Virus record (IMG/VR): IMGVR_UViG_3300021400_001778
Location: 8,923-72,922 of that record
Direction: 5' to 3' (one strand)
Origin: a virus
Taxonomy: Duplodnaviria > Heunggongvirae > Uroviricota > Caudoviricetes
Length of the DNA: 64,000 nt
Below the pieces are notes generated by a model, which was not told the origin of the DNA, did no database searches, and saw only the letters and a list, made by a program, of their open reading frames with translations. The position numbers and the translations under genes are program-made. Of this stretch, positions 21,027 through 61,801 are shown piece by piece; the stretch's first letter is position 1, and each line of letters opens with the position of its first letter.

Positions 21027-21812
21027 TTAGAATAATTTTTCGATATATTCTCGCCCTTCTTTCTTAAATGCGGGAATTTCTAAGTCAATATACCACTTGT
21101 CTCTTGCGAAAACGCTCTGTTCTAATGTCGGCGCAGTTTTGATAAGGGGAACTTTTTTCTTTATACAGCAACTACCCAAAAGATGATGCGATTCGTAATT
21201 AGACAGATAGTCGTTCTTTTCGTGGAGCATACCAATAACTTCATCTCTTGATTTGTTTTTTAATTGCTTATCAGAATAATGCGTCCTTGCAATCATATTT
21301 ACTGCATTCCTAAAAGCATCAGATTGCCGCCAGTAAAAATAATTCGTAACTTCTTCTTTAGGAATATTAAACGTTCGGCAATCAAATGTGACATATTTAT
21401 GGTCATAATATCGTTCAAAAAGTTCATCGAATTCATTTTCGTAATCTTCTACATTTGCTTCGTATCTATTCAAGAAAGCCGCAGTTGCCATACTTGCGAT
21501 AACGGAGCAAAGTTTCTGAACTCTATACCCGAAAAACGGTTCTGCTCTTTCATTTAAATAGTTCGCAAGAAGCAGAGATATTTCGTCCGACTGTGTATAT
21601 CCTAATACGCAACCTTGCACATTTTCACAAAGATACTGCATAGTATCGCGCATTGTTCTTGAAAGAACATCATCAAATGGCTTTTGAAAATTCTTTGTGA
21701 ATGTATGAAAACATCTGCCATCGACCCTAACAATGACTGGCTCGTATGGGTCGAGAGCGACATTAAACTGCCGCTCATAACCCTTCATTCTCTTATCAAA
21801 TTCTGTATACAT
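21027..21812 (-). CDS. Thg1-like protein (tRNA-His guanylyltransferase family 3'-5' nucleotidyltransferase)
   Basis: PYEPVIVRVDGRCFHTFTKNFQKPFDDV and LGYTQSDEISLLL match the Thg1 motifs VVRxDGRxFHxF...KPxD and GYGQSDEYSF; size 261 aa. Confidence 0.7.
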   Translation of the reverse strand: MYTEFDKRMKGYERQFNVALDPYEPVIVRVDGRCFHTFTKNFQKPFDDVLSRTMRDTMQYLCENVQGCVLGYTQSDEISLLLANYLNERAEPFFGYRVQKLCSVIASMATAAFLNRYEANVEDYENEFDELFERYYDHKYVTFDCRTFNIPKEEVTNYFYWRQSDAFRNAVNMIARTHYSDKQLKNKSRDEVIGMLHEKNDYLSNYESHHLLGSCCIKKKVPLIKTAPTLEQSVFARDKWYIDLEIPAFKKEGREYIEKLF

Positions 21813-22313: not shown

Positions 22314-22904
22314 TTAAAATTCTCGCGCTATATAATGTTTAAACTCTGAATATGTATTAAATTTGCTCCTAAAACTCGATTGAATATCTTCGAGATGCAA
22401 TCCGAATTTTTCTGTTACAAAATTAATATACTCAAAATCATATACCTTTTTTCTACGTTTATTTTTCTTTTTGATAATATCGAAAACTTCACTTTTAGGA
22501 ACTTTATATTCTGCGAAAAGATAATTAGCCATATCCCGCGAAGAATATTCTTCAAATTGACAAATGGGACAAAATTCTTCTGGCATTTCATAGCACCATT
22601 CTGATAGAATGTTTTCAATAAGTTCACCGTCACTCATCTCGGTAATCTCATCTTCCGAAAGTCTATAAAATTCACTCATTCTATAAACTTTCCTCATACT
22701 ATTGTTGATTTGAGTTATAAATTCTAACAACTTATCTCTCGATGGAATTAACATATGTTCATCACAAATAACGTGTCCATTCATACATTCAAACATATCC
22801 CCATCTCGTACTGAACAATCCCATCCTGATACTTCGTTGCCGCATATATCACACACATATGATGACGAACTTGAATTTGTTACAAAATCTTTTCTGTATT
22901 TCAT
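22314..22904 (-). CDS. Paralog family member 1 (MKYRKDFVTNSSSSSYV N-terminus; Cys-rich, Zn-binding-like C-terminal part)
   Basis: Shares the N-terminal ~16 aa with four neighbouring ORFs; the remainder is unrelated. Confidence 0.6.
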   Translation of the reverse strand: MKYRKDFVTNSSSSSYVCDICGNEVSGWDCSVRDGDMFECMNGHVICDEHMLIPSRDKLLEFITQINNSMRKVYRMSEFYRLSEDEITEMSDGELIENILSEWCYEMPEEFCPICQFEEYSSRDMANYLFAEYKVPKSEVFDIIKKKNKRRKKVYDFEYINFVTEKFGLHLEDIQSSFRSKFNTYSEFKHYIAREF

Positions 22905-22916
22905 TTTTACCTCCGC

Positions 22917-23396
22917 TTAATGATGACTAAAACGCTTGATAGTACAATCGAGATATGGCATAATATCATGCTCAAGGTCTCCGTCAGTGTGGTCACAATA
23001 TTCGACTTCTGCCAAATATTCACAATCATCAATTTTTTCTTTGAAACGCTTATATAACTCATCTATCTTTGAATTTACAGCATCATCAAATTCTTTTTTA
23101 TTTTCTTCCTTCTCAATCCATTTTTCAAAATTTGTATAACCACCCAATTTATCCTCGTAACTATCTTCTAAATAAAATTTCACATTCCATCGAACTTCAT
23201 CTTTAAATATTTCAAGCGCATATTCTTTTGTTATTCTGTGTTTTTTTATATCACGCAAAACTTCATCATATTTATAAATACTGTCACATTTAACCATTGA
23301 TTCTTTTAATTGTGAATCTATATCATTTTCGCTTTTAAAACCAACTATAAAACTACTTGAACTACTATTTGTTACGTAATCGCATCTTATTTTCAT
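22917..23396 (-). CDS. Paralog family member 2 (MKIRCDYVTNSSSSSFIV...)
   Basis: Conserved N-terminal motif; acidic, divergent C-terminus. Confidence 0.6.
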   Translation of the reverse strand: MKIRCDYVTNSSSSSFIVGFKSENDIDSQLKESMVKCDSIYKYDEVLRDIKKHRITKEYALEIFKDEVRWNVKFYLEDSYEDKLGGYTNFEKWIEKEENKKEFDDAVNSKIDELYKRFKEKIDDCEYLAEVEYCDHTDGDLEHDIMPYLDCTIKRFSHH

Positions 23397-23408
23397 AATA
23401 AATTCTCC

Positions 23409-23909
23409 TTATCCTACATCGTGTTGTATTAATAAGTGTTTGCGGCATGTCTGTTTTAAAAACCCGTTTCTTATAGCCCATTCAAGTAATCCACCATTTG
23501 TATCCCAAATTGTAGAAAACACAATCTTTTCAGAATTATCTATTTTGTTTATAGATTCAATATAATTATTATCGTTTTTTATTTTATCATCTATTAAATC
23601 TTTACACTCTTTAGATTTTAGATACACGAATAATTTGATTAATGATAAATTTTCAGTTTCATTTTTTATGTTGTTTTTTACTTCTTTTTCATATTTTGCA
23701 TAATATACATTATATAAAAACTCTTTCGCCCGTTTTTTCAATTCTTCTTGTGATGCTCTGTGTAATTGCGACTTAATAAATGTCAGTAATTCGTTATAGT
23801 CATACCAATCCATTTCTTCTACAAATTCTGCATAATCATCATTTGTGCTAAATGTTAAAATAAAACTACTTGAACTACTGTTTGTAACATAATCGTTTCT
23901 AATTTTCAT
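23409..23909 (-). CDS. Paralog family member 3 (MKIRNDYVTNSSSSSFIL...)
   Basis: Conserved N-terminal motif; divergent C-terminus. Confidence 0.6.
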   Translation of the reverse strand: MKIRNDYVTNSSSSSFILTFSTNDDYAEFVEEMDWYDYNELLTFIKSQLHRASQEELKKRAKEFLYNVYYAKYEKEVKNNIKNETENLSLIKLFVYLKSKECKDLIDDKIKNDNNYIESINKIDNSEKIVFSTIWDTNGGLLEWAIRNGFLKQTCRKHLLIQHDVG

Positions 23910-25177: not shown

Positions 25178-25528
25178 TTATTCAGAACCCTTCTTAAAAT
25201 ATTCGCTATCGTAGTCAAGAGAATTATAAAGAAATCTGTCAATATACCCGTCATCGCTATCAGCAGTACCGCTGAAAATCTTCCAATCTCCAAGCGTTAA
25301 TAAAGGCGTAGTGTGTAATTCGCATGAAATATATCTTTGTATATCTTTTTCTTTCTTTTCCTGTGTAACACCGCAACCCCACTTCTTTTCATAATCTGTA
25401 ACTTCGCTTGCCTCTTTATTTGCTAATACAAATTTCTTAACTTCATCTTCAATGTTAGCATCTTTATGAATGGCAATGACGTAAGAACTCGAACTGCTAT
25501 TTGTCACAAAGTCTTTTCTTATCTTCAT
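25178..25528 (-). CDS. Paralog family member 5 (MKIRKDFVTNSSSSSYVI...)
   Basis: Conserved N-terminal motif; divergent C-terminus. Confidence 0.6.
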   Translation of the reverse strand: MKIRKDFVTNSSSSSYVIAIHKDANIEDEVKKFVLANKEASEVTDYEKKWGCGVTQEKKEKDIQRYISCELHTTPLLTLGDWKIFSGTADSDDGYIDRFLYNSLDYDSEYFKKGSE

Positions 25529-25730: not shown

Positions 25731-26033
25731 TTAATCACCGTTTATATAAAAAGCATTATTGTCGCATTCAACGAAAATAACATCTTTACCTCTACCATAA
25801 TGATTTCCCGCATAACATTCACCCATTATTTGATTATGAATATTTTTAAAGTATTCAATATTTAACTTAATGTATTCAATCGCGCCCTCTTTTGTTTCAA
25901 AATCCTGTTCTGTTTCCCAAAAGAACGCCCGTTGATTTGTTACAAAAAACGTGTCTATATCAGGACAAAAGGCTATAACATAAGTATCATGTTCTCTCAT
26001 TGCGTCATCTGGTATTTCTTCATAAATTATCAT
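25731..26033 (-). CDS. Hypothetical protein (100 aa)
   Basis: ORF whose start is coupled to the stop of the upstream gene. Confidence 0.3.
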   Translation of the reverse strand: MIIYEEIPDDAMREHDTYVIAFCPDIDTFFVTNQRAFFWETEQDFETKEGAIEYIKLNIEYFKNIHNQIMGECYAGNHYGRGKDVIFVECDNNAFYINGD

Positions 26034-28390
26034 TTATTTCTCCATATCACTAAATGTCTATCTACATTATTGCACAAAGTAATTTCATTCCTAATGGGAC
26101 ACCCGCCCATGCATTCATTTCTTCTTTTACAGTTTGGACATGAGTTTCTAAAAATATTTCTAAAGTTTTCAAAAACATTACTATCCCATGCGTTTTGAAT
26201 CGTATCATTAGAAATGTCATAAGCCCACTTCATATCCTGATTATCAAAGCTACAAGGTAACGCTTTCATATCAGAAGTAATATACATACTCCATCTTCCG
26301 CCCTCGCAAGTATCAAAGCTATCTGGATTTACTTTTGTAGTGTAATTAATAAGCGCGGGAACTGTGCAACTATCAAATCCAATCTTAAAATTGTGGTCTA
26401 CATTTTCGATAGCTTCAAAAAATCTCTTTACTCGCGGGTCATCTGTGTGTAATACTTTTTCCTGTGTACCTAATCCAACTGGCTTATAAAGCAGAAAAAT
26501 TACAGCGTTGATACCTTTCGGAAAATCATTATTCTCAATTCTTGTAATAGCTTCATCAATGGAATTATTACTAAGAACGTAATGAATATTTGTTTTAACT
26601 CCCGCATTTAGTAGTAAATTTACCGCTCTCTTTGTGTATGGTGCATGATGCTCGGATACAGCCACCGCTCCACAATATTTTTTACATAATTCAGCCTTTT
26701 CTTTTGTCATCATTATTCCACTTGTAGTAAAATTTGGAACAATATTGTATTTTTTACAAATTTTAAGTAAATCTTCAAAATTTTCATGGGTATCAACGTC
26801 ACCCGCCCCACCCATTGCGCAATTATGAGAAACAATAAAATGTGTTGTCACAAACAAGTGTTCTTTTGAATTTATATTTATATCAATAACTCTTCTTTTA
26901 CCGACATTTTTTATTGAATTTACAATGTATCCTTTTCTATGTCTCAAATAATTCTCATTATGTTCTACATTTATAATTGTATTTAAAAAATTGTCGTAAT
27001 CTATGTGTTCAGAAATTACTTTATAAATTTTTCTAATCTCTAATAAATTTGATATTATAATTCTATAGCGTTTCTTTCTATTTATAATCCTTTTATCATT
27101 TTTTGAAAATTCGAATTGTCCGCCATTTTCTGTATTTACGGAATAATCAACATTTATTTTTGATAAAAGCATTGTTAAATCTTTGAACAATTTTTCGCTT
27201 GAAGTATTAAAAATAATTTCGCCATAATTACCATCATGTGTTTTAATATCTATATTGCCATCGCAAAAATAACCTTCAAGAAAATACAAAATCATTTCAT
27301 CGCTTACGCTATATATGAAAATCGGTAACTGTTTTTCTCGATTAGGAGTTCTACATCCAAAAATATTGTCAAATAATTCTTCATGGAGCATGTTACTACT
27401 TAATTCAATTATACAAGCACCTTGCGAATATCTTGTTGTATATGAGAAATCATCAAAACAATTCTGTAGACATTTTTTTATTGAATCAATCATTTTTGTT
27501 TGTTTTTCATTTACAACATATCTCCTTCGCGAACCATTACCAATATAATGACCAAGTAATATCATAAAATCTTTCGTTATTGGATATATCGTTTTAAGCC
27601 TATAGGGAGAACGAGCTTTTGATATTTTTGCGTCTCTATAATTTATTTCCTCTAAATGATTTTTAATTTTTGATATTAATACAGTTTTATTCCTATTCCT
27701 TTTAATGTTATATTTATTGCATACTTCCATTAAACCTTCACAGTCTGATAAGAAAAAATAATCGTCTAATCCGCGGGAAATAATTAATTTAACAACATCA
27801 ACTTCATTGATTGATTGTATATTCTTTTTGTTTTTAGCAGTTACGAATTCGTCCCCTACTTTTAATTCTTCAACAGTTTTTAGACCATCCACTGTAAGAA
27901 ATTTATGTTCTTTTGTTGCTTTAATTGTTTTGCCGTATCCGATATTTATTTCATATACATCGTCATATTTTTCGCGTTTTTCATATACATCGTGAAAACC
28001 GTCTCCGCAATAAATATTATCTCCGACTCTAATATTTTTAATGTATACACTACTTATATAGTTACCAGATTTGCGTAAAACAACTTCATCTTCGTGTAAA
28101 CATTGAAACATTTTACCAGACGATTCTTTCATTATTTTTTCGAAGTTTTCGACGCTCATATTTTTGCCTTTGCGCTCTATTGCTTTTTGATAACAATCAA
28201 CATTACAATATTTTGCACAAACACACGTTTCCATAACCCCAACGTCAATAAGTTCTGGAAATGAAGACATAAATGGGTCTACGCCAGTATCAACACCATT
28301 CTCAATAATCCCTGTTCTCGCGTAAAATCCAGTTTCCGTATTAAAGGTTGAAATATATTTATATTTAGCATCGTGTTTAGTGATAATCAT
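26030..28390 (-). CDS. Radical-SAM/SPASM-like Fe-S enzyme (exteins ~359 aa) interrupted by a LAGLIDADG intein
   Basis: N-extein Cys cluster TCVCAKYCNVDC; C-terminal SPASM-like CPNCKRRNECMGGCPIRNEITLC (Cx2Cx5Cx3C); inserted 427-aa element begins CLHEDEVVL and ends FIVSHN followed by C. Confidence 0.55.
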   Translation of the reverse strand: MIITKHDAKYKYISTFNTETGFYARTGIIENGVDTGVDPFMSSFPELIDVGVMETCVCAKYCNVDCYQKAIERKGKNMSVENFEKIMKESSGKMFQCLHEDEVVLRKSGNYISSVYIKNIRVGDNIYCGDGFHDVYEKREKYDDVYEINIGYGKTIKATKEHKFLTVDGLKTVEELKVGDEFVTAKNKKNIQSINEVDVVKLIISRGLDDYFFLSDCEGLMEVCNKYNIKRNRNKTVLISKIKNHLEEINYRDAKISKARSPYRLKTIYPITKDFMILLGHYIGNGSRRRYVVNEKQTKMIDSIKKCLQNCFDDFSYTTRYSQGACIIELSSNMLHEELFDNIFGCRTPNREKQLPIFIYSVSDEMILYFLEGYFCDGNIDIKTHDGNYGEIIFNTSSEKLFKDLTMLLSKINVDYSVNTENGGQFEFSKNDKRIINRKKRYRIIISNLLEIRKIYKVISEHIDYDNFLNTIINVEHNENYLRHRKGYIVNSIKNVGKRRVIDININSKEHLFVTTHFIVSHNCAMGGAGDVDTHENFEDLLKICKKYNIVPNFTTSGIMMTKEKAELCKKYCGAVAVSEHHAPYTKRAVNLLLNAGVKTNIHYVLSNNSIDEAITRIENNDFPKGINAVIFLLYKPVGLGTQEKVLHTDDPRVKRFFEAIENVDHNFKIGFDSCTVPALINYTTKVNPDSFDTCEGGRWSMYITSDMKALPCSFDNQDMKWAYDISNDTIQNAWDSNVFENFRNIFRNSCPNCKRRNECMGGCPIRNEITLCNNVDRHLVIWRNK
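26822..28102 (-). mobile_element. Intein (~427 aa) with a LAGLIDADG homing-endonuclease domain inside the radical-SAM-like gene
   Basis: Intein block A CLHEDEVVL; LAGLIDADG-like MILLGHYIGNGS and LYFLEGYFCDGNI; terminal blocks ...KRRVIDININSKEHLFVTTHFIVSHN with +1 Cys. Confidence 0.6.
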
Positions 28391-28392
28391 AT

Positions 28393-29550
28393 TTAATATT
28401 TATAACCTCCCGTTTCACTACAAGATAAATATAGATGCTTTGCTGCTCTCTGTAATTCTAATAATTCTCTATATGTTTTAATAGGAACTTCGTTTGTGTG
28501 CGTAACAAAAATTGAAAAATCCCTGTTTGCATCGTTCCTAATTCGTGTTATTAATTCATCAAAATCTAATGTGCCGTATCTCAAACTTCCTTGGTGCGGG
28601 TTAGGAATGTTCGTTCTATCAACTCTGATATTACCTATATTCTCTTTTGCGCATTCTGTTTTAAATTCACCCGCGCCGTGTCTTGTCATGTATGTGCGAG
28701 TGACATAAATTGGTTCAACATAAAAATCGCCAGAGAAAGAGTTTTCAATTTCTACGATATTTTTCATTCCAGTATTACTCGGAGTTGTATGCACATTATC
28801 TTTATCGCTATTTAACAATAAACCTTGTCCATTCTCGAAAATAATAGAATCATAATTTCGTATCACTTCCGCGTCAGATTCAATTGTATTATCAATCATA
28901 AACATTAAGTCATCAATAAAGTGGAATCGTATTTTATAATCCTCGATTAATGGCTTCCAATAATAATAAATTTCGTCTGTTATTGCTCCACTTGTACGGT
29001 ATTTACTAAGTGTATGTCTAAATAGATACGCGCGGATTTCAATTTCTTTCATTGTTTCATATAAGTCGGCTTTCTTAAAATCGCCATATCTCCAACAATA
29101 ATTATTATTATCGTATAATTTAACCGTTTCCCATATTCCTAACCCACAACTGCCATGTTTAGTTTTACGGCTTTGCTCCAACATCTGATTCAAAAAAGAT
29201 TCATAAAACGTAGATATTCTACAATTTTTGTCAATATAGACTTTTGGTTTATAACCTAATTTGACAAGTTCTTCAAATTCTTTTCTAAATACAATCGGAT
29301 TAAGTATAAAATATTCAGATAAATATGTATCTGCTCTTCTAAATGTTCCGCTACCGAAATGGCTAAAAGCGTGTCGCGTACCGTCTTCCAAAACAACAGT
29401 ATGGGAACGTTGCGCTCCTCCGTTGTTACAAATTACGAGACAATTACCGTATGTATTCATCGCTTCATCAGCAAGAGCATCTGTGGCAAGTCCCTTACCT
29501 TCGTCACCATAATTAGCACCAATAACAGATTTTGCGTCAATCGTTCCCAT
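28393..29550 (-). CDS. Adenylosuccinate synthetase (PurA) family protein; a PurZ-type 2-aminopurine pathway enzyme is possible
   Basis: GANYGDEGKGL (compare GTQWGDEGKGK), GGAQRSHT (compare GGHNAGHT), FENGQGLLL (compare FEGAQGTLLD), TRHGAGEF (compare TRVGAGPF). Confidence 0.75.
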   Translation of the reverse strand: MGTIDAKSVIGANYGDEGKGLATDALADEAMNTYGNCLVICNNGGAQRSHTVVLEDGTRHAFSHFGSGTFRRADTYLSEYFILNPIVFRKEFEELVKLGYKPKVYIDKNCRISTFYESFLNQMLEQSRKTKHGSCGLGIWETVKLYDNNNYCWRYGDFKKADLYETMKEIEIRAYLFRHTLSKYRTSGAITDEIYYYWKPLIEDYKIRFHFIDDLMFMIDNTIESDAEVIRNYDSIIFENGQGLLLNSDKDNVHTTPSNTGMKNIVEIENSFSGDFYVEPIYVTRTYMTRHGAGEFKTECAKENIGNIRVDRTNIPNPHQGSLRYGTLDFDELITRIRNDANRDFSIFVTHTNEVPIKTYRELLELQRAAKHLYLSCSETGGYKY

Positions 29551-32711: not shown

Positions 32712-33380
32712 TCATTTTACCTCTAATAAATGTGTAGCTTCCATATCAGCTTCATGTAAAGCTAACGCAAGCGGGAATTTCTCGAAAGCATTTCCTAACG
32801 AATTCCAGATATTTTGACTTTCATACGCGCCCATATGGAATCTGATTGCTACAGCTTCTTCGTCCGTAAGCGTGATATATTTATTTACAAGATATACGCT
32901 CTTATCGCCATGCCCGAACGGGAATTGTTCATCAGGTTTGTAATACGGTACTGTTTCCCATATAAAGTTACCGTTACTGTCTGACTTAATTTGCCAACGT
33001 GCGGCGGCGTTCACCTTATCTTCATCGTATGTTTTCTGGTTTCTATAATCCACTTTATAGAAATTTGCTTTACATACATCATGGAGTAAGGCGGCGAGAG
33101 CAAGTGATTCATCTGGCGTATCTCTCAAATATTTACTCCATAACTCATTCTTTTTCTTTTTCAAGATACAAGTGTAAACATTCAAGCTGTGAGCGACAAG
33201 TCCGCCCTCGTAATCACAGTGGAATCTTGATGACGCGGGTGCTGTGTAAAAATCAGTAGATTCAAGATACTTAATCAACTCTTCAATGCCATCGCGCTTA
33301 GTGTCTCGCAGAATCATATTAAATATTTCACTATTAGATAAATTTGATTCATTGAGAAGTGATTCATTGTTACCTTCCAT
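32712..33380 (-). CDS. HD-domain phosphohydrolase
   Basis: VAHSLNV...ALLHDVCK matches the H...HD metal-binding signature. Confidence 0.6.
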   Translation of the reverse strand: MEGNNESLLNESNLSNSEIFNMILRDTKRDGIEELIKYLESTDFYTAPASSRFHCDYEGGLVAHSLNVYTCILKKKKNELWSKYLRDTPDESLALAALLHDVCKANFYKVDYRNQKTYDEDKVNAAARWQIKSDSNGNFIWETVPYYKPDEQFPFGHGDKSVYLVNKYITLTDEEAVAIRFHMGAYESQNIWNSLGNAFEKFPLALALHEADMEATHLLEVK

Positions 33381-33525: not shown

Positions 33526-33554
33526 ATTATACTACTTACGTTCCCCTTTGTCAA
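33526..33554 (-). promoter_or_regulatory. Sigma-70-type promoter TTGACA-17-TATAAT on the minus strand driving the HD / SPFH / vWA / PurA-like operon; a 37-codon leader ORF with a GGAGGTG ribosome-binding site lies between the promoter and the HD gene
   Basis: Reverse complement reads TTGACAaaggggaacgtaagtagTATAAT, 29 of 30 positions identical to the promoter at 54484-54512. Confidence 0.5.
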
Positions 33555-35253: not shown

Positions 35254-35898
35254 TTAAATGAAATCGCAAACCTTGATTTTTGTAATAATTCTGTTGTGCT
35301 GTCTGTCATAAAGGTCTATTATTGGCTTACCGACCACACCCTCCATTTCGTGATTCGGGTTAATAAGTGAACGAGGTTGAGTCTTGATAAATTCAATAGC
35401 ATCATTAATCGTTCCAATCATAACTAATGGCACGGTTTTAATGCCGAATGCCTTTGCGATATCTTGAATATCCTGATATTTAAGCCAAGTATCTGAACCA
35501 ACCATATACACATCGAACAAGATAAAATCACAGCCATCTGGAATATAATTACCGCCGCCTTTCTGAATTTTCGCGCCGTAACCTTCGCCAAACAGAACAA
35601 CTTCTTTCTCGCCAAACAGTTGTTCAAACATCTCTTCGGCTTCATTCGTACCGAAAATCTCAATCAATCTATTCGTAAGATGTGCGGGAATCTGCGCTCT
35701 CTCCGTTCTTCCCTGATAGTTTACTTTGTGTCCGTTCCAGTATATGCCCGTATTTGTTCCGTCCACTTTTTCACTAAAGAACCAGAGATTATTAGATAAA
35801 AATTTGACTGCATCGTTTCTATATTCTCCCTCAATAAGTTTCTTAGTGCCTTCAATATCTCTAACAAATGGTGTTTCAATTTTTGTGTAAGTATACAT
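35254..35898 (-). CDS. ATP-dependent RNA ligase (Rnl2-like nucleotidyltransferase domain)
   Basis: Motif I EKVDGTN (KxDGxN), motif IV FGEGYGAKIQ, motif V ILFDVY, C-terminal ...KIKV lysine motif. Confidence 0.65.
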   Translation of the reverse strand: MYTYTKIETPFVRDIEGTKKLIEGEYRNDAVKFLSNNLWFFSEKVDGTNTGIYWNGHKVNYQGRTERAQIPAHLTNRLIEIFGTNEAEEMFEQLFGEKEVVLFGEGYGAKIQKGGGNYIPDGCDFILFDVYMVGSDTWLKYQDIQDIAKAFGIKTVPLVMIGTINDAIEFIKTQPRSLINPNHEMEGVVGKPIIDLYDRQHNRIITKIKVCDFI

Positions 35899-36879: not shown

Positions 36880-37299
36880 TTATCCTCCTTTTAAATTTTT
36901 TAATACTGGATTTAAATTTACAGTTTCGCCGCTAAAACTAAAAAACTCTCTTAAAGTAGTTCTTGACCAACTGTGAACACCAGTATCATCTAATAGCCCA
37001 TATTTTGCGCCATCATAATAATATATAATATATCTTTTACCATCTGCTGTATGTATATATACATCGCCAATTTGAGGTTCATGTATACTATCGCACGATT
37101 TTATAATTTCGTCAGTTGTCAAATCATCAAACATATCTAAAAAAAATCCGCATTTTTTATTAAACAACTGGTTAAACAACTGGTATCGTTCATCAAATGA
37201 TAGTTCTTTTAATTTCTTTAATGCACCAAATAAATCATCTGCCGAAAATTCACTTAATGCATCTTTTTCTACCCAAAAAAAATAGCGTATTATTTTCAT
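36880..37299 (-). CDS. Hypothetical protein (139 aa)
   Basis: ORF only. Confidence 0.3.
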   Translation of the reverse strand: MKIIRYFFWVEKDALSEFSADDLFGALKKLKELSFDERYQLFNQLFNKKCGFFLDMFDDLTTDEIIKSCDSIHEPQIGDVYIHTADGKRYIIYYYDGAKYGLLDDTGVHSWSRTTLREFFSFSGETVNLNPVLKNLKGG

Positions 37300-37730
37300 A
37301 ATCTACATATTTAAGTCTTACATAATTGCCAGTAGTATCTTCATTTTCTTCTAAAAATTCTACTGGCAAATATACAATATCACCACTCTTCATTTAAACC
37401 AATACCTCCAAGCAAAATAAAGTACAACGATAATTAATATTATTGAAACGATAAGATAAATGCCATACACAATAGCACATTTAATACTAATATCTAAAAT
37501 CTTTTGTATAATTTCTTCTGTTATCATATTGCCCTCTTAAAATATACTTAAAACATCATTAAGTTTTTCTTCTACATCTGGCGAATCGAGATTCGGTACT
37601 TCGAACGTGTGTACTTCATTACCTTTCAACGCCATAATTCTACATGAATTTTCGCGGTAAAGCATATCGTATGATATATATACCGTTGGATTTATTCTCT
37701 TCGCCAATTCTCTGATATCGTGTATCGTTC

Positions 37731-38012
37731 TCATTCGAATGAATATTTATTAATCCTTTCTACTTTTTCGATATATCTTGTTTTTCTGCTTCCGCAAATT
37801 GGACAATAATAATATAGTTTATTAGCGTCTGGCTCTCTACAAATTGGACAATAATATAGTCCATTAGCGTCTGGATCTCTGCCAATTGGCGAGCCGTTAA
37901 TGCCCTTATCACATCTATATCTAAAACCGCAACTACATTTAGCATATATAGCCGCATCGCCTAAATACTTAACAAATCTCCATATATGGTCTTTTCTTCT
38001 ACCCTTTTTCAT
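37731..38012 (-). CDS. Small Zn-finger protein (93 aa) with repeated CPIC motifs
   Basis: CSCG...YYCPICRE...YYYCPICGS. Confidence 0.35.
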   Translation of the reverse strand: MKKGRRKDHIWRFVKYLGDAAIYAKCSCGFRYRCDKGINGSPIGRDPDANGLYYCPICREPDANKLYYYCPICGSRKTRYIEKVERINKYSFE

Positions 38013-38016
38013 AAAA

Positions 38017-39297
38017 TTATGCTGTTTGGATACTCGCGACTTTAGCCGTGAGAGGAAAACAACTTCTCCTTTCTATAAGATATCCATTAACATGTTCTAA
38101 TAATTTTAACTTCTTATAACTAATATTTCCTTTATTCACTTTATCTCCACTTAAATTTCTTATATCAAAATACCCAGTTTTTCTTCTTGCGAAGATAAAA
38201 TACTGTTTCCCTTGATACATTACTCTATCGTATAAATGAAACCCATGTATATCATAATCTGTCTGATTTCTTTTCTTTACGCCACCTTTGCAGATATTGA
38301 ATTTATGAATTTGGCGATTATGTCTTCTAACTTTCCTATAATAGTAAATACAATCATCGTCTTTTGCTAATGTATTTCCGCTAATACATCGCGCGTCTAT
38401 ATAATGTTCTTTCGGCAAACCATGAAGAATCCTACTGTTCTTTGTAATATATCCGAATGTCATAGATACATCTTTATATCTACTTTTTAATTCGTTGTAG
38501 AACGCCCATCGCATAATCCCCATAAACGTTGCGTCTCTAAAAGACATGCCACGTTTGATTGTATTAGGAAGTTTTACCGTCCCATTGTGATATCCTTTGT
38601 GGCAAGTTTCGCAAAGTGTAATTAAATTGTTTGGCGCATCACCACCCGTCTTTCTACTTTCGATATGATGAACATTTAAAATCTTATCTTTTGACTTACC
38701 TTTACAGCATTGGCAAGTGTGACCATCTCTGAACAATACATATTCACGCACGTTCCAAAATCCAAGCTGTTCACCCTCTTGATACATTTCGTTATGTATA
38801 TCAGGGTTTTTAATCTTCTGTATATCAAAAGACGCTGTTTCAACCACAATCTTTGATATAGGAAGAATATTATAAATCTTATCAACCACAGATAAATGCG
38901 TTTCAATTTTGTGTCTGATGCTTGGCGATAACCATTTCTCGCATCGCTTTCGGTTGTTGAAACGTGCTTTGCGATATCTTGTTTTGCGATTTCTTCGTTC
39001 TTTTCTTGCTCCGCGCCTTGTAGATAACTTCTCTACAATATCGTTTCGGAGTTCTACTTCCGATTCAAATAAAACTTGATTACTTGTAGTTGCTGATAAT
39101 CCTATAGTTTTACTTCCACTATCAACTCCAAGAGAGATATCTTGAATAACATTTCCAGTTTCGTATAATAATTGAATCGTGAACGGATTTTTATTAATTA
39201 CCTTTGCTTTATTGTCTCGCAAAAGTCTTCTTACTTTCCCAAAACGCTTCGTTGGCATTAAAGGTTTTCCGTCTCGATTTATCACATAAACAAACAT
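38017..39297 (-). CDS. iscB: IscB (OMEGA-system RNA-guided nuclease, IS200/IS605-associated ancestor of Cas9)
   Basis: N-terminal PLMP domain (INRDGKPLMPTKRFGKVRRLL), RuvC-I (ISLGVDSGSKTIG), Arg-rich bridge helix, HNH (CQCCKG...NVHHIESRKTGGDAPNNLITLCETCHKGYHN), RuvC-III (KEHYIDARC); 426 aa. Confidence 0.85.
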   Translation of the reverse strand: MFVYVINRDGKPLMPTKRFGKVRRLLRDNKAKVINKNPFTIQLLYETGNVIQDISLGVDSGSKTIGLSATTSNQVLFESEVELRNDIVEKLSTRRGARKERRNRKTRYRKARFNNRKRCEKWLSPSIRHKIETHLSVVDKIYNILPISKIVVETASFDIQKIKNPDIHNEMYQEGEQLGFWNVREYVLFRDGHTCQCCKGKSKDKILNVHHIESRKTGGDAPNNLITLCETCHKGYHNGTVKLPNTIKRGMSFRDATFMGIMRWAFYNELKSRYKDVSMTFGYITKNSRILHGLPKEHYIDARCISGNTLAKDDDCIYYYRKVRRHNRQIHKFNICKGGVKKRNQTDYDIHGFHLYDRVMYQGKQYFIFARRKTGYFDIRNLSGDKVNKGNISYKKLKLLEHVNGYLIERRSCFPLTAKVASIQTA

Positions 39298-39620
39298 AAT
39301 ACTCCTATGATATGTTTTGTTGTTGTAAACCAGTACATATCAACTGTAAGATAACCATCGTCAATGTTATGGAAAGGTTTACATATGCACAACACTGTTC
39401 CTACCCATTAGAACTGTTTAATCATGCGTCGTAGAGTTACAGACTTGGTTATACATCCGTAAGTACCTATACATTCTTTCCTAACGTAGTGTCCGAAACA
39501 CTTAGACTAATCAATAACGAACTTTCGCAAGTCCGTGACTTTAGTCATGGGTTATTGACGCTCTTTCCACTATTTCAAGAGCATCACTTAATATTGAATT
39601 TACCATAAATATGCCTCCTA
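39298..39620 (-). ncRNA. Candidate omega-RNA (HEARO-type) for IscB: ORF-free, higher-GC region immediately 5' of iscB
   Basis: About 320 nt with no ORF and many inverted repeats, in the position expected for an IscB omega-RNA; a promoter lies just upstream at 39627-39655. Confidence 0.5.
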
Positions 39621-39626
39621 CTTTTC

Positions 39627-39655
39627 AGTATACTACTTATATTCTCCTATGTCAA
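39627..39655 (-). promoter_or_regulatory. Minus-strand promoter TTGACA-17-TATACT positioned to transcribe the omega-RNA and iscB; followed by AGGAGG plus a 21-codon mini-ORF
   Basis: Reverse complement of 39627-39655 reads TTGACAtaggagaatataagtagTATACT; the taagtagTATA part is shared with the two other promoters. Confidence 0.45.
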
Positions 39656-39658
39656 TAG

Positions 39659-39937
39659 TTATTTCTCAACCATTTTTGCCCCGCAATAAGGACAGAAATT
39701 ACTTTCGAAAGCTACATGTATAAAATTTCCGTCTACTTCGTCAAGAGCATATCTGCCACATTCAGAACAGCAATAACCGCCACCTTTCTGACTCACCCAA
39801 CGTCCTGTCTTGCGCTCTGGCTGTGCAGTTGGAATTTTTCTAAAAATATCTTTTGCATATTCCAAATCTGCGTAAGTATCAACGCTCCCAATGCGTTCAA
39901 CCGCGTCTATCGCCGCTTCCCTTTCAATTAAACTCAA
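39659..39937 (-). CDS. AQPE / C-terminal CPxCGAKM zinc-ribbon family member 1
   Basis: ...IPTAQPERKTGRW...CSECG...NFCPYCGAKMVEK. Confidence 0.5.
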   Translation of the reverse strand: MSLIEREAAIDAVERIGSVDTYADLEYAKDIFRKIPTAQPERKTGRWVSQKGGGYCCSECGRYALDEVDGNFIHVAFESNFCPYCGAKMVEK

Positions 39938-39940
39938 TTT

Positions 39941-40306
39941 TTACCACCCCTTATCTTCCATTTTCGCGCCACAGTTCGGACAGTAGTTATATGTCGGTTC
40001 ATCATCTTCAAAAACACATCCACACTCCGAACATTTCCACTCGTAGTAAACAGGACTTCCGTCTGCGTACCCATCAAATTCAGTTCCAATGAAATACCCC
40101 GTCCTCTGCTCTGGCTGTGCGGGTGGTAAACCTTCAAGTAATTGTTTAACTGTGCCAATAAACCCCTCTGCCGTACCTTCCTCAACATACCAATCACCAT
40201 ACGCATCAATCGCCGTTTGTCTGCTTATCAGGTCATCATTCTGGCTCATACAAATCCCTCTCCCTTCTAAGACAGTTGCGGCATCCCGCATATTCGTAAT
40301 AATCAT
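39941..40306 (-). CDS. AQPE / CPNCGAKM zinc-ribbon family member 2
   Basis: ...LPPAQPEQRTGYF...CSECG...YCPNCGAKMEDKGW. Confidence 0.5.
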   Translation of the reverse strand: MIITNMRDAATVLEGRGICMSQNDDLISRQTAIDAYGDWYVEEGTAEGFIGTVKQLLEGLPPAQPEQRTGYFIGTEFDGYADGSPVYYEWKCSECGCVFEDDEPTYNYCPNCGAKMEDKGW

Positions 40307-40487
40307 ATTTGCACCCTTTGCAAGTCAATACTGGCTGTGCGGATTCAAGCATGTCCTTTATTTCGGTTAATGCTTGCGCGTAGTGCCACAAATCACTGTG
40401 TTCTGCCTTGCCAATATCTGCTAAAATATTGATTAACCAATTAACGGCTTCTCTGTTATCCATCAGTTCTCCTTTCATGACTTTCAA
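40236..40487 (-). CDS. Hypothetical protein (83 aa)
   Basis: ORF only. Confidence 0.3.
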   Translation of the reverse strand: MKVMKGELMDNREAVNWLINILADIGKAEHSDLWHYAQALTEIKDMLESAQPVLTCKGCKYDYYEYAGCRNCLRRERDLYEPE

Positions 40488-40694
40488 TACTTGTAGAAAA
40501 CCATCTGACCTGTCTCAGCGGTATATGCCGATTTGAACCATTTGAAAGCCTCAACCAAAGCAAGTCACATCCAAAGCGCACCTCTGTGCATTCAAACTCT
40601 TCCAGATATCCGTCCCACCATCTTACAGTTACTATGTTATTCATCAGTTCTCCTTTCCGTTAAAACCAGTTGCTTTATAATTTCCTTTTACACC

Positions 40695-41000
40695 TCATTT
40701 CACAAGCAAATCTCTTCCACACATCGGGCAGTATCTAATTTTTGCGCTTCCATGCCATCCATTTGCTTTTAAACTCAGTTCCCACCCGTTTATGCCAAAT
40801 CGTATAAATGCGTGTCCGTTCTTCTCAATTGGCTTTACATAACCATCAGAATCTTTATTACAGTATTCGCAAACTCCCAAACGTGCGCGAAGTTTGTTTT
40901 CATCCCTTCCATGTCTGCACAATGCATAATATTCACACGGTTCTGGCTGTGCAGGCGATAACTTTTTTTCAAGTTGCTCAATGTCGATTAAATCACTCAT
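40695..41000 (-). CDS. AQPE / zinc-ribbon family member 3
   Basis: ...LSPAQPEPCEYY...RYCPMCGRDLLVK. Confidence 0.45.
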   Translation of the reverse strand: MSDLIDIEQLEKKLSPAQPEPCEYYALCRHGRDENKLRARLGVCEYCNKDSDGYVKPIEKNGHAFIRFGINGWELSLKANGWHGSAKIRYCPMCGRDLLVK

Positions 41001-46771: not shown

Positions 46772-46813
46772 TCAATAACTACTCTATCATTTTACACTAC
46801 TTACATTCTCCTG

Positions 46814-47617
46814 TCAAGGATTATATTTCAACATATTTGACTCCATAACCTTATTATATTGTGCTTTGCCAACTTCAAAACCATAGCTGTGACGACCTAA
46901 TTCAAGCGCGGCGCGAAGTGTAGACCCGCTACCCGCAACTGGGTCAATAACAACATCACCTTCATCAGTAAAAGTTTTAATCAGCGTTTTAAGCAAACTC
47001 ACTGGCTTTTGCGTTGGGTGTAGTTTCGGGATACTCTTATCGTCCTTTGTATATTCAAACCAGTTAAACACCATTCTGCCATGTTCTACACCATTCTTGT
47101 CAATCCATTTTTCGTTGCGGAACTTCGGCAGATATCCGCGATAAAGTAACATGCCGTACTCTGTCGCGCCAACAACTCTCATGTTCGCTTTGAGTGCTTG
47201 CGGAGAATAATTCTTAATAAATACAAGTGGAATACAATTCACGAAACCATGCTTCTGCGCGTATTTCAGAACTGTAAACTGCTGAGTCCATGAGCAAAAT
47301 ACAAGCATACACGGAGCATCCGAACTTCTTCCTCTCTCGCCGCCCTTGTTTGGCTCTTTCTTCAACAGTCTATTGCAGAAATGAAAGTATTCCGCAATAT
47401 TAAAATTAAAGTCCGTGTTAAAAGCCGCCTTACCCGCGAGTTTACTTTCACCATTCTTGTTATCGCCTCCGATGTACCAGTTCGGATTACTACCATAGAA
47501 ATTTGTGCCAATATTAAAAGGGATGTCCGCAATCACCATCTGTGCTTTTGGAATCCCATATCTCTTGTAGTTCTGAAAATTGTCGTTATATAATTCACAT
47601 TTAATTTCTTTCGCCAT
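46814..47617 (-). CDS. DNA methyltransferase (N6-adenine / N4-cytosine, beta-class) 1
   Basis: C-terminal SAM motif VVIDPVAGSGSTLRAALELGR; N-terminal ADIPFN in the position of the DPPY motif. Confidence 0.6.
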   Translation of the reverse strand: MAKEIKCELYNDNFQNYKRYGIPKAQMVIADIPFNIGTNFYGSNPNWYIGGDNKNGESKLAGKAAFNTDFNFNIAEYFHFCNRLLKKEPNKGGERGRSSDAPCMLVFCSWTQQFTVLKYAQKHGFVNCIPLVFIKNYSPQALKANMRVVGATEYGMLLYRGYLPKFRNEKWIDKNGVEHGRMVFNWFEYTKDDKSIPKLHPTQKPVSLLKTLIKTFTDEGDVVIDPVAGSGSTLRAALELGRHSYGFEVGKAQYNKVMESNMLKYNP

Positions 47618-52627: not shown

Positions 52628-53446
52628 TTATTCTTCTACCAATTTAATAAATTTTGCTGTACCTCTATTTAAATCTTCGAGAGAATTAAATTTACTTACG
52701 CCACCCGTCGGTCGTACATCTCCATCATCATCTATAAGTTTACCATCGGAAATTTCATAAACCTTTCCAAGTGTGTATCCTTCGTACTCTTTTGTACAAA
52801 CAACTTTCATATTAAACTTTTTATTGTAAATTTCATCCTTTGATTCAGTGTATAAATCGAAGCAACTACAATCTACCCACCAGTAGTCGCTATTATTACC
52901 TTCTTTATGCACCTTCATTCGGAATTTAAGTTCTGGTGTCATTCTAATATTTATTTCTGAAACAACACCAATCCAACCTTTATTTGTCAAAGCGTAATGG
53001 TTCTTGTCATTACCTATAACTTTATCACCAACAGTAAATCCTAAAATAAGGCGACTGAAAGCGAGAATTGCACCAGTTTTAAAATCATACTTATCCTTCG
53101 GATTGCACTTTGCTGTACACTTTTCTTTGGTGTTTTTGTTAAGAGCGGTGACAACGCTCCCATTATTGTAAATCACAATAGATTCCTTAGATGGCAATTC
53201 TTTTTCAACCTTCTCTAAGCCGCGTTCATCCCAAATATACGGTGGGATATCAGATAATATATAATAAATCATACCATCTTTATTTGATGATACTGATTCA
53301 ATAGTATGTTCTTCGCCAATATACTCATTCATTCCCTCTTCACCAACCGACCAATTACCAGTGTAATTTTCGATTTTTGAGCCATCCATGATTCTTACTT
53401 TATCGCCAACTTTGAACTTACCAGTAATTTTTTCTTCTTTCATTTC
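52628..53446 (-). CDS. Hypothetical protein (start taken at MKEEKITGKF; the longer ORF would overlap a tRNA-like gene)
   Basis: ORF lying between tRNA genes. Confidence 0.4.
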   Translation of the reverse strand, partial: EMKEEKITGKFKVGDKVRIMDGSKIENYTGNWSVGEEGMNEYIGEEHTIESVSSNKDGMIYYILSDIPPYIWDERGLEKVEKELPSKESIVIYNNGSVVTALNKNTKEKCTAKCNPKDKYDFKTGAILAFSRLILGFTVGDKVIGNDKNHYALTNKGWIGVVSEINIRMTPELKFRMKVHKEGNNSDYWWVDCSCFDLYTESKDEIYNKKFNMKVVCTKEYEGYTLGKVYEISDGKLIDDDGDVRPTGGVSKFNSLEDLNRGTAKFIKLVEE

Positions 53447-53474
53447 AAAAACCCTTTCTTTTTTATTTTTAATA

Positions 53475-53543
53475 TTGGAGTGGCGGGATTCGAACCCGCA
53501 CTCCGTTGTACAAACGTACTCTTCCACTAAGCTACACTCCGAA
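53475..53543 (-). tRNA. tRNA-like gene of atypical length (~68 nt) with canonical D- and T-arms and a C1:A72 mismatch; anticodon uncertain (GUA, Tyr-like, if a 3-bp anticodon stem is assumed)
   Basis: Reverse complement CGGAGTGTAGCTTAGTGGAAGAGTACGTTTGTACAACGGAGTGCGGGTTCGAATCCCGCCACTCCAA; T-arm GCGGG-TTCGAAT-CCCGC. Confidence 0.35.
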
Positions 53544-53544
53544 C

Positions 53545-54230
53545 TGGCGACCCCTTGTACTTCGGTGGTACTTTAATGCTCATTAACACACCAGTTTTAT
53601 GTACGTTCGATTTGGTTACGGCTACTCTCGACAAAGTAACTATTGCGCACTGGTCACTTCCGTACAAAATACACTTACAAGCTACCGAAAGCCCGCCCCT
53701 TTGCCTTTACTCTTATTACGCTACGTGAGGGTTTTAAGTGCCACTTGTCGCCAAGCACAACCTGTCGTTTTACGCGCATATGCGGTATATTTCACTTGTA
53801 AGATGGCAGAAAAGAGATATTTATCAGCTAATATCACTTTATACGCTACCTATTTTCTCCTTATAACCACCCCCAACACACCATTCGCTGATAAATACGT
53901 GATTATAAGGTAAAAAATTCTTACGCATCTGCCTATTGTTCTGATAAGGATTTGCACCTTACATGCAAGAGTTTTTAAACCACGCGTGCTAACTATTGTA
54001 TGCATCCAATCCCTTGCACAGCACGCTTTACGTCTACCTATTCCGCCACAGAACATGTTATTTTGTCTCCACAAAGGTTACAAACCTAAGAATCGAAATC
54101 ACGCTTTCGCTTCTCATTTTGAACGGGTTCGCGCGACCCGCCCGCGCCGATTTTAAGTTATATTATATCGGGAACTTAGGCAGTCTAAAGGAAACTTACC
54201 ATCCCTCTGCTGTTTGAGTATACAGCATAA
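53545..54230 (-). ncRNA. About 690-nt ORF-free, GC-enriched region flanked by tRNAs and downstream of a strong promoter: candidate large structured ncRNA (ROOL/GOLLD-like); strand assumed from co-orientation with the tRNAs
   Basis: No ORF of 60 aa or more apart from two short overlapping ones on both strands; GC-rich helices such as cgggttcgcgcgacccgcccgcgccg; ROOL and GOLLD RNAs are typically found next to tRNAs in phages. Confidence 0.45.
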
Positions 54231-54483: not shown

Positions 54484-54512
54484 ATTATACTACTTATGTT
54501 CCCCTTTGTCAA
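54484..54512 (-). promoter_or_regulatory. Sigma-70-type promoter TTGACA-17-TATAAT on the minus strand driving tRNA-Leu, the large RNA and the tRNA cluster
   Basis: Reverse complement TTGACAaaggggaacataagtagTATAAT, near-identical to the promoter at 33526-33554. Confidence 0.5.
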
Positions 54513-56314: not shown

Positions 56315-56894
56315 AGAACTCCTTATTAATACTCTCGATATTTTTATGTGGCAAACTTGCCATTTCTTCAACAATTCTATCTATTTCGTAATCGTGCATA
56401 AAGAATCTATACGTTATATCTGCCAAAAATAACTTTGTGTTATTATCATCGTATATAACTTCATACATTCTTTGATTTGTATTACGACTATTAAGCCCGC
56501 CGCAAGATTCTATATAATTCCCAATCTTAATATAGTCGAGGCAAGCCGTGTCGTAAAATACACTAAACACTTTTGTGCTTCTACTACCGCTATATATACA
56601 AACTTTGTAGCCGCGCTTCTTAACTCTTTTGCATAAATCATATAATTCGTTTAAATTTTGGTCGCCACCCATAAAACATACACAAGTTATGAGCGAATTA
56701 TATTTATCTATAAGTTTGTCTAAGTCGTCGGAAATATAATTACCAGTGTACTCCCAAAGATATTGGGAGTGGCAACCCTTACATCTGTAAGGGCAACCAC
56801 TAATATTAATAGCAAGCGATATCTCGTCAGGGACTTCTTCGCAAACTACAGCATAACTAACATATTTAAGTTTCTGTCGTTTCTGCATCACCAC
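56289..56894 (-). CDS. nrdG: Anaerobic ribonucleotide reductase activating protein (radical SAM)
   Basis: CPYRCKGC (Cx3Cx2C) near the N-terminus; adjacent to nrdD. Confidence 0.7.
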   Translation of the reverse strand: MVMQKRQKLKYVSYAVVCEEVPDEISLAINISGCPYRCKGCHSQYLWEYTGNYISDDLDKLIDKYNSLITCVCFMGGDQNLNELYDLCKRVKKRGYKVCIYSGSRSTKVFSVFYDTACLDYIKIGNYIESCGGLNSRNTNQRMYEVIYDDNNTKLFLADITYRFFMHDYEIDRIVEEMASLPHKNIESINKEFYEKSISCC

Positions 56895-57342
56895 TCCAAT
56901 AATAACGCTTATGTTCTTCTTCCTGTCTCTTTTCGGAGAACTTCGATACGCGCTTTAAATAACCGATAACTCTTGTTGCATAATCAATATTCTCAGAGCC
57001 GCAAACAGGACACTCAGAGTATCTATGCTTGCTAATATTACCGCAATCATTACAGATTGTATTCGGTACATTAAACGTAAAATATGAACAGCCAGTCTTA
57101 ATAGCTACGTTCATTAAATGACGATACTGCTCTTTGCTCAAGTGTTCTTGCAGATTCGCATGAAGCGCAGAACCGCCATCAAGCCACTTAGTTGTCTTAT
57201 CGCCATGAAGAATAAACTTATCCAATAGTGAACAGGTTTCATCTTCTGGTTTATAAAAATACGAATTATAGCAATCGCGAGGTGAGAAGTATCCGTCTTC
57301 CTTGTCCCACTTTGCATTTTTTACGCCGAGATTTTCAGCCAA
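56866..57342 (-). CDS. nrdD: Anaerobic ribonucleoside-triphosphate reductase NrdD, C-terminal exon (Zn ribbon plus glycyl-radical motif)
   Basis: CNDCG...CPVCGS...ATRVIGYL (RVxGY glycyl radical site); separated from the N-terminal ORF by a 218-nt ORF-free gap. Confidence 0.65.
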   Translation of the reverse strand: MAENLGVKNAKWDKEDGYFSPRDCYNSYFYKPEDETCSLLDKFILHGDKTTKWLDGGSALHANLQEHLSKEQYRHLMNVAIKTGCSYFTFNVPNTICNDCGNISKHRYSECPVCGSENIDYATRVIGYLKRVSKFSEKRQEEEHKRYYWSGDAETTET

Positions 57343-61204: not shown

Positions 61205-61801
61205 CTATATATATCGAAACCTATATCCGCCATGAGATTTCTTTTTCCCATTCAAAACAGCCCATATATTTTTGTAATTCAATGACATTTTTCTTGCACA
61301 TTCATGTATATTATTCCAAATCACTTCAGTTTCTACACAAATAAACTCTTTATTTCTTGTCGTGTTGAGCATCTGTTCTGCTATAGAAACAAACCTACAA
61401 TTTGATGGTTCATAATTCCCATTAACATCTATCCTGTCTAATGTACATTCTCCGTATTTTGCGCCATCGTCATATCCGTTTTTGTAAGCCCAATTTCTAA
61501 AAGACTCATAACTATTTTTCCAATCATCACAGACTTTAATGTTGCGTTCACCGTAATTTTTATATTTATTATTGTTTTTGTTATAACACCTTTCTTTCAT
61601 GCCTGCCCAAACAGAATATAGCCTTTCACCATAATGCCCATGATAGCTATAAACATCCCGATGACCCAAACATCCACAACTCTTTTTATGTCCACTTAAT
61701 AATGCCGATGTCGATACATCGCACTCGTTTCCGCATTCGCAAATACAATGCCACTGTACTGCTCCCCAACTATTTCTTCCGTTTTCATATAATACTTTCA
61801 A
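61205..61801 (-). CDS. Free-standing HNH homing endonuclease (HNH_3 type)
   Basis: ...LDRIDVNGNYEPSNCRFVSIAEQ... plus a Cys-rich N-terminal region. Confidence 0.6.
   Translation of the reverse strand: MKVLYENGRNSWGAVQWHCICECGNECDVSTSALLSGHKKSCGCLGHRDVYSYHGHYGERLYSVWAGMKERCYNKNNNKYKNYGERNIKVCDDWKNSYESFRNWAYKNGYDDGAKYGECTLDRIDVNGNYEPSNCRFVSIAEQMLNTTRNKEFICVETEVIWNNIHECARKMSLNYKNIWAVLNGKKKSHGGYRFRYI

Follow-up and report, generated by a model that had tools for sequence, protein, structure and literature searches.

The locus considered here lies on the minus strand of a 64,000-nucleotide stretch of a Caudoviricetes genome (IMG/VR record IMGVR_UViG_3300021400_001778, positions 8,923 to 72,922), hereafter the window, to whose numbering all coordinates refer. 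It comprises a gene for the RNA-guided nuclease IscB, the omega-RNA directly upstream of that gene, and the two ends of the insertion sequence which holds both, lodged among small genes of the phage. In the order in which the minus strand is read, the features of the locus are as follows.

39627..39655, minus: sigma-70-type phage promoter TTGACA-17-TATACT (11/12 consensus positions), outside the element.
39541..39606, minus: chimeric mini-open reading frame (mini-ORF) MVNSILSDALEIVERASITHD, that is, MVNSILSDALEIVERA continued by SITHD and a stop, its first 15-16 codons being of the phage and the rest of the element.
39560..39575, minus: predicted 16-nt guide AAAUAGUGGAAAGAGC, phage flank inside the truncated mini-ORF and directly 5' of the first scaffold base.
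38013..39559, minus: whole IscB/omega-RNA insertion sequence, 1547 bp, non-autonomous, of IS605/ISC type, delimited by independent copies and element-free relatives.
39346..39559, minus: omega-RNA scaffold (HEARO), a full-model match to Rfam RF02033.
39533..39550, minus: subterminal imperfect hairpin of the omega-RNA end, CCATGAC-TAAA-GTCACGG.
38017..39297, minus: iscB coding sequence, 426 amino acids (aa), catalytically intact by its residues (Pfam, NCBIfam and PDB matches; alignment).
38033..38052, minus: matching subterminal hairpin of the opposite end, CTCACGGC-TAAA-GTCGCGAG, within the 3' end of iscB.
38013..38032, minus: 20-nt foot beyond that second hairpin.
38008..38012, minus: transposon-adjacent motif (TAM) ATGAA (TTCAT on the plus strand), whose ATG starts the 93-aa gene that comes next.
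37731..38012, minus: the downstream 93-aa zinc-ribbon gene, intact, its ATG being the first three bases of the TAM.

The product of 38017..39297 matches the Pfam families RRXRR (2.8e-64) and HNH (1.7e-08), scores 380.7 bits against the NCBIfam equivalog 'RNA-guided endonuclease IscB' (guided_IscB, cut-off 175), and matches the IscB chains of solved structures in the PDB with E between 1e-55 and 1e-53. Its architecture consists of an N-terminal PLMP/RRXRR region, the PLMP motif being residues 12-15, a split RuvC domain with an inserted HNH domain, and a C-terminal TAM-interaction region. The RuvC residues D59 (RuvC-I), E153 (RuvC-II) and H298/D301 (RuvC-III) are in place, as are C195/C198, H210/H211, N224 and C229/C232/H233/H237 of the HNH domain, and all of them are invariant in an alignment with four IscB relatives 63-93% identical to it. 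A preliminary description of this DNA had called the protein an unmistakable IscB on account of its PLMP, RuvC-I/II/III and HNH motifs, and the family and structure matches bear this out. Measured against a 93% identical copy (L003), the ratio of nonsynonymous to synonymous substitution (dN/dS) of the gene is 0.16; judged from its sequence, iscB appears to be under purifying selection and the element does not appear to be decaying.

The candidate omega-RNA proposed in the same description was recovered over the full length of the HEARO model with 131.7 bits, the gathering score being 83 (E = 2e-28), directly upstream of iscB and on the same strand; RF02033 has no second match within the window. 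Among the relatives checked, HEARO was found directly upstream of iscB in 18 out of 18, always at 108 bits or more, and an alignment of the relatives' omega-RNAs revealed compensatory changes at 23 of the 38 consensus pairs, a structure into which the window copy fits. According to Meers et al. (PMC10055086), the Rfam model leaves out the 3' part of the RNA that reaches to the start of iscB, and in the window the omega-RNA probably extends as far as about 39298 and takes in a terminal hairpin just 5' of the iscB ribosome-binding site. At the opposite, 5' end, the bases abutting the scaffold (39560..39575) are the predicted guide, its length of 16 nt being inferred from the published length of IscB guides; the position near 39600-39620 suggested earlier is therefore to be abandoned. 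When targets were sought in the window at up to three mismatches, only the locus itself was matched, and against GenBank phages the guide with its TAM gave partial matches at chance level (E of 0.6 or worse). Neither a CRISPR or other repeat array nor a second guide was found in the window.

The boundaries of the element were fixed by comparison with related loci, as the preliminary description had proposed, at 38013 and 39559. A case in point concerns L003, an unrelated phage contig, whose resemblance to the window sets in precisely at 39559 and stops at about 38005, just past the iscB stop codon. The junctions at the omega-RNA end of L003 and of three further copies (L005, L006 and L007) start with GTCAATAACCC, the sequence immediately upstream being unrelated, which sets this end at 39559; along the same line, GTCAATAAC is common to five independent copies with unrelated sequence just upstream. 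As to the TAM end, twelve copies of the window type in different contexts carry ATGA 3-7 nt past the stop codon without exception, and ATGAA in 11 of 12. In a wider set of 62 distinct ends with a recognisable terminal hairpin, ATGA lies 12-24 nt past the hairpin, mostly 18-19 nt, in 49 (35 of these reading ATGAA), against a background of 8.9% at the same loci. Relatives devoid of the element regain homology exactly at 38012, the A of ATGAAAAAGG. Hence, with the copies fixing 39559, and the ATGA statistics and the homology of the relatives fixing the 38012/38013 junction, the element spans 38013..39559.

Both ends bear the marks of the IS200/IS605 superfamily, that is to say defined boundaries with subterminal imperfect hairpins and without terminal inverted repeats, and insertion beside a short conserved motif that also serves the nuclease as TAM. 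The hairpin motif CAYGRCTAAAGTCRCG has two matches in the window, which coincide with the two element ends, for a chance expectation of 0.14. The hairpin of the TAM end reads CACGGC/GTCGCG in the window and CATGAC/GTCACG in L003, so that both arms have changed, and the encoded amino acids with them, while pairing has been kept, as is expected where a transposase recognises the hairpin in the DNA.

No such transposase is encoded in cis. The absence of an adjacent TnpA had been pointed out before, and it holds for the window: none of the scanned ORFs (91 candidates of at least 45 aa, a dozen candidates antisense to their neighbours or overlapping tRNAs having been left out) matches the Y1 transposase family PF01797, and a crude screen (HUH motif plus clustering) of the 1.5 kb on either side of iscB in 157 related loci was negative for HUH-type ORFs. 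The element is accordingly classed as non-autonomous. This is the norm for iscB loci, about 1.5% of which lie beside tnpA and about 98% of which do not (PMC10055086), so that the lack of TnpA in the window does not count against its identity as an insertion sequence.

Sheep-rumen metagenomes contain contigs 99.98% identical to the window, as well as relatives whose sequence on either side of the locus is 93-98% identical. Within the sheep-rumen samples of one study the element is present in L001, L002, L171 and L177, and there is no element in L166, L167, L168, L175 and L176. Such presence/absence polymorphism, together with the L003 copy in unrelated flanks, is evidence of mobility. In the relatives without it, homology to the window ends at 39562, within the mini-ORF, and restarts at 38012. 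Between these points they have 1550 bp (5377..6926 in L167) occupied by a block of five small genes, of 46, 75, 104, 138 and 94 aa, as against 1549 bp in the window, nearly all of which is element; blastn and tblastn did not find the block in any part of the window.

It was also observed that three independent assemblies break within the omega-RNA, L001 and L002 starting at positions equivalent to 39505 and 39443 of the window and L171 ending at 39466. Such breaks point to further elements in these samples whose omega-RNA segments are nearly identical.

The element-free relatives help to sort out what belongs to the phage and what to the element. The promoter at 39655..39627, the best-scoring one in the region, sits 68-96 nt beyond the omega-RNA end. 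It belongs to a family of four copies, TTGACAnAGGrGAAyrTAAGTAGTrTAnnnT, all on the minus strand (33526..33554, 39627..39655, 46789..46817 and 54484..54512), and the element-free relatives have the same promoter and leader. On these three grounds it is a promoter of the phage: the consensus site noticed earlier is real, while its attribution to the element as a promoter of its own does not stand. The mini-ORF, in turn, had been suspected of being the decapitated start of a phage gene, and its counterpart in the relatives is indeed a 33-aa ORF, MANSLLNDALEIVERQEVKERAKKNLDLDANYC, which in the window is cut after codon 15-16 and followed by five element codons, the stop falling within the first hairpin of the omega-RNA. 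The proposed position of the element between members of a zinc-ribbon paralog family was likewise upheld. As to the 93-aa gene on the far side, no relatives of it were confirmed in IMG/VR. It was also considered whether the mini-ORF and the 93-aa gene are the two halves of a single split gene, a joint at 38005 being in frame; this was rejected, for the TAM statistics and the relatives put the boundary at 38013/38012, and the relatives have two separate ORFs.

The coincidence of the TAM with a start codon is not peculiar to the window. In the iscB elements of L003-L165, the ATG of the TAM opens an ORF of at least 50 codons in 29 of 48 distinct insertions, versus 31% of background ATGA sites, and the inferred empty site in L003 and L005 consists of a ribosome-binding site followed by ATG. 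By virtue of the ATGAA motif, IscB elements thus tend, above chance, to come between a co-oriented gene's ribosome-binding site and its ATG.

Taken together, the locus is very probably an intact, non-autonomous IscB-omega-RNA element of the IS200/IS605 superfamily, of the ISC or ISGst5-like type, residing in a phage of the sheep rumen which, having an integrase gene, is probably temperate. How it would work can be outlined as follows, where the expression of the element, its cleavage activity and the source of its TnpA are what I infer. The element encodes nothing but IscB and its omega-RNA; a Y1 TnpA acting in trans, probably from the bacterial host, would once have placed it immediately 3' of TTCAT on the plus strand, which on the iscB strand is directly 5' of the ATGAA that starts the 93-aa phage gene. 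Transcription from 39655..39627, the likely source of read-through, would first run through the 16 nt of phage flank that serve as guide, then through the scaffold and iscB. The resulting complex would cut only DNA in which AAATAGTGGAAAGAGC is followed by ATGAA, the joint left behind by precise excision (GAAATAGTGGAAAGAGC directly followed by ATGAAAAAGGGTAG), and repair from a genome copy still bearing the element would restore it (restorative homing). The element is probably expressed by read-through and probably able to cut its own excision joint.

Several observations weigh against this account and have to be set beside it. Set against the only relatives found to lack the element, the locus is no simple insertion: in place of an empty site made up of the left flank and the TAM flank, they show a five-gene block between their flanks, and this calls for a second event, be it a deletion next to the element or the replacement of a block. 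Moreover, the precise empty site, GAAAGAGC joined to ATGAAAAAGG, is absent from JGI metagenomes, and the exact 20-mer of guide plus ATGA is absent from IMG/VR. Related searches gave a similar picture, in that a 24-mer of the left flank found as its sole match a known contig of the five-gene type, a 26-mer of the flank is absent from IMG/VR, and IMG/VR has no match to the empty sites predicted for the copies in L003 and L005. Lastly, a read-through transcript would have about 45 extra nt 5' of the guide, which would need to be trimmed.

As regards the second event, the right boundary of the swap is the ATGAA motif, which the relatives possess too. In the simplest history, the element would have inserted at ATGAA in a block-bearing ancestor, and a later deletion would have extended from the omega-RNA end into the mini-ORF; a deletion of this kind would automatically re-specify the guide. 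Another history that fits is a simple insertion into a relative devoid of the block. The block and the stretch of the window in its place agree in length to within 1 bp, and this may be a coincidence, considering that the region of 39.5-43 kb is a mosaic between the same phages, with several other block replacements.

The near-equal swap has a different meaning under the alternative that fares best, albeit an unlikely one, namely that the element is a gene drive acting from phage to phage. According to it, IscB would cut element-free phages at co-infection or prophage induction, and repair would copy the element together with its flanks into them (non-restorative homing), in the manner of the free-standing homing endonucleases of T-even phages; the literature considers such a mechanism possible (PMC13565253). 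The 1550-bp replacement could then be a footprint of co-conversion; the element does lie behind a strong phage promoter and in the direction of the operon, forms with and without it occur in sheep-rumen samples of one study, and several other homing-type elements are found in the window. What speaks against it is the lack of a valid target. At the guide site the element-free relatives read AAATAGTGGAAAGACA-AGAAG, two TAM-proximal positions of the guide being different and no ATGAA adjoining, which argues against ongoing homing into these relatives; nor did IMG/VR or the GenBank phages hold a match to guide plus TAM. The broader conjecture that IscB elements of rumen and gut phages are in general RNA-guided drives between co-infecting phages, in which promoter read-through would supply the guide, ATGAA would direct them to gene starts, and the 1550-bp/1547-bp swap would record co-conversion during break repair, is to be held as doubtful to the same extent.

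The preferred reading, an intact insertion sequence with a working nuclease-RNA complex, has also to be weighed against decay. That the element is an inactive remnant, a passenger without such a complex, could be argued from the lack of TnpA among the scanned ORFs, from the missing empty site and from the rearranged left flank. It is nonetheless improbable, in view of a full-length ORF with all catalytic residues and a dN/dS of 0.16, of an omega-RNA which scores far above threshold and fits the covarying structure, and of two intact ends. The preliminary description had itself named the absence of an omega-RNA structure combined with mutated catalytic residues as the hallmark of a remnant, and neither is seen here.

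Slightly less probable still is the domestication of the nuclease as a weapon against competing mobile elements or the host, independent of transposition, a role the preliminary description had envisaged in speaking of guide-directed targeting. An intact gene under purifying selection and a phage promoter upstream would be compatible with it, yet the guide is the adjoining phage flank, as in any copy of an insertion sequence, the TnpA-type end hairpins and the TAM are both kept, the locus is polymorphic instead of fixed, and no external target, CRISPR array or second guide was found. A guide independent of the flank, lost ends or fixation at a syntenic site were thus all missing at this locus, and neither the same guide across diverged phages with degraded ends nor a guide matching another element beside ATGAA was seen. 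The weakest alternative, a free-standing HNH homing endonuclease with protein-based recognition, draws on the HNH domain and on the name 'HNH endonuclease' given to most phage homologues in GenBank, and is refuted, to the point of having hardly any probability left, by the RRXRR/PLMP region with a split RuvC, the guided_IscB cut-off passed, the matches to IscB-omega-RNA structures and the HEARO upstream, all of which identify the gene as iscB.

The remainder of the window is of phage content: tail proteins, endolysin, integrase, anaerobic ribonucleotide reductase, DNA methylases, tRNAs and several homing-type nucleases. The last include an HNH endonuclease at 396..1772 (plus; phrog_559, 3.5e-46), an I-HmuI/NUMOD-like protein at 61205..61801 (minus), and a 786-aa ORF at 26030..28390 (minus) that combines an intein splicing domain with a LAGLIDADG domain; the phage thus carries several kinds of selfish nuclease. 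The NrdD reading frame is split over 57561..59738 and 56866..57342 (minus), about 220 nt apart, the C-terminal NRDD segment residing in the second ORF, a split that may mark an intervening selfish element or intron.

Among the other genes, an adenylosuccinate-synthetase homologue at 28393..29550 (minus) matches phrog_1211 (1.3e-55), whose annotation suggests a phage PurZ (2-aminoadenine) type; its PDB matches are weak (E = 1e-12) and confined to ordinary PurA. About 3 kb from this PurA-like gene, a protein with an HD-type motif (32712..33380, minus) has no PDB match. A Thg1-like tRNA-His guanylyltransferase (21027..21812, minus), an RNA ligase (35254..35898, minus), and the tRNA-Ile(TAT), tRNA-Gln and tRNA-Leu encoded as well suggest a module for tRNA repair or supply. 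The 'tmRNA' with a 30-aa tag called by ARAGORN at 53476..53699 (minus) overlaps both an Rfam tRNA match (53475..53541, 46 bits) and an ORF (52628..53527), and may be a false call or an interrupted tRNA. Finally, four paralogous ORFs (22314..22904, 22917..23396, 23409..23909 and 25178..25528, minus) share the N-terminus MK(I/Y)RxD(F/Y)VTNSSSSS(F/Y) and have no Pfam match.

Beyond the window, phage contigs very commonly carry IscB elements. Viral contigs yielded at least 463 relatives, in some cases two to a contig, and bacterial and archaeal genomes another 282. Thirty phage records of GenBank contain IscB homologues, mostly labelled HNH endonuclease; megablast of 37000..41000 returned no close relative among GenBank phages. 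Two of the related loci have features of their own. L013, an Oscillospiraceae contig, shows HEARO at 1..189 and at 2586..2817, about 2.6 kb apart, the second being downstream of iscB and possibly belonging to a second or tandem element. In L031, from Eubacterium ruminantium ATCC 17233, the IscB element is preceded at a distance of about 3.3 kb by a Pistol ribozyme (65.6 bits; 379..454, minus).

To sum up, the annotation of the locus is settled as a complete and probably active IscB/omega-RNA element, with its ends, guide and TAM mapped, from a lineage without a close relative in GenBank. Since the same set of rumen samples contains phages with and without it, it offers a natural system in which to test RNA-guided homing between phages.

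As far as known systems are concerned, the closest parallel is ISGst5 of Geobacillus stearothermophilus. There a transposon end bounds the omega-RNA, which precedes iscB, and 5'-TTCAT-3', ATGAA on the opposite strand, is recognised by TnpA as well as by GstIscB, for which it was determined by experiment (PMC10055086). The window element shares with it the iscB-only organisation, with TnpA in trans and the flank as guide, the upstream omega-RNA bounded by the transposon end, and the TAM TTCAT; the residues replaced in the nuclease-dead GstIscB mutant D58A/H209A/H210A (PMC10055086) correspond to D59, H210 and H211 of the window protein. It differs in being a distant copy and in residing in a rumen phage; a relative from the same bacterial family (L072, Anoxybacteroides tepidamans) has about 57% protein identity. 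OgeuIscB (PDB 7UTN, 7XHT and 8CSZ; E about 1e-53) resembles the window IscB in its PLMP/RRXRR region, split RuvC, HNH and HEARO-type omega-RNA, but is longer, with 496 aa against 426, and its TAM is NWRRNA (PMC12660989), whereas the window protein is associated with ATGAA. With regard to HEARO (RF02033) itself, the full-length match keeps the covarying structure and there is no notable difference.

In isolated phages, IscB-like genes are present in Clostridium phage c-st, Clostridioides phage pCD1602_4, Ralstonia phages, Staphylococcus Silviavirus and cyanophages, and HEARO has been reported in Staphylococcus Silviavirus genomes (PMC13346280). In contrast to the copy described here, these homologues belong to other lineages, being at most 54% identical to it, and are mostly annotated as HNH endonuclease or hypothetical protein. 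The Seg and Mob homing endonucleases of T-even phages are comparable as selfish phage nuclease genes that may bias inheritance through cleavage and recombinational repair, but they recognise their targets by protein and have no guide RNA, transposon ends or TAM. All in all, the window element fits the current model of IscB biology and overturns nothing in it.

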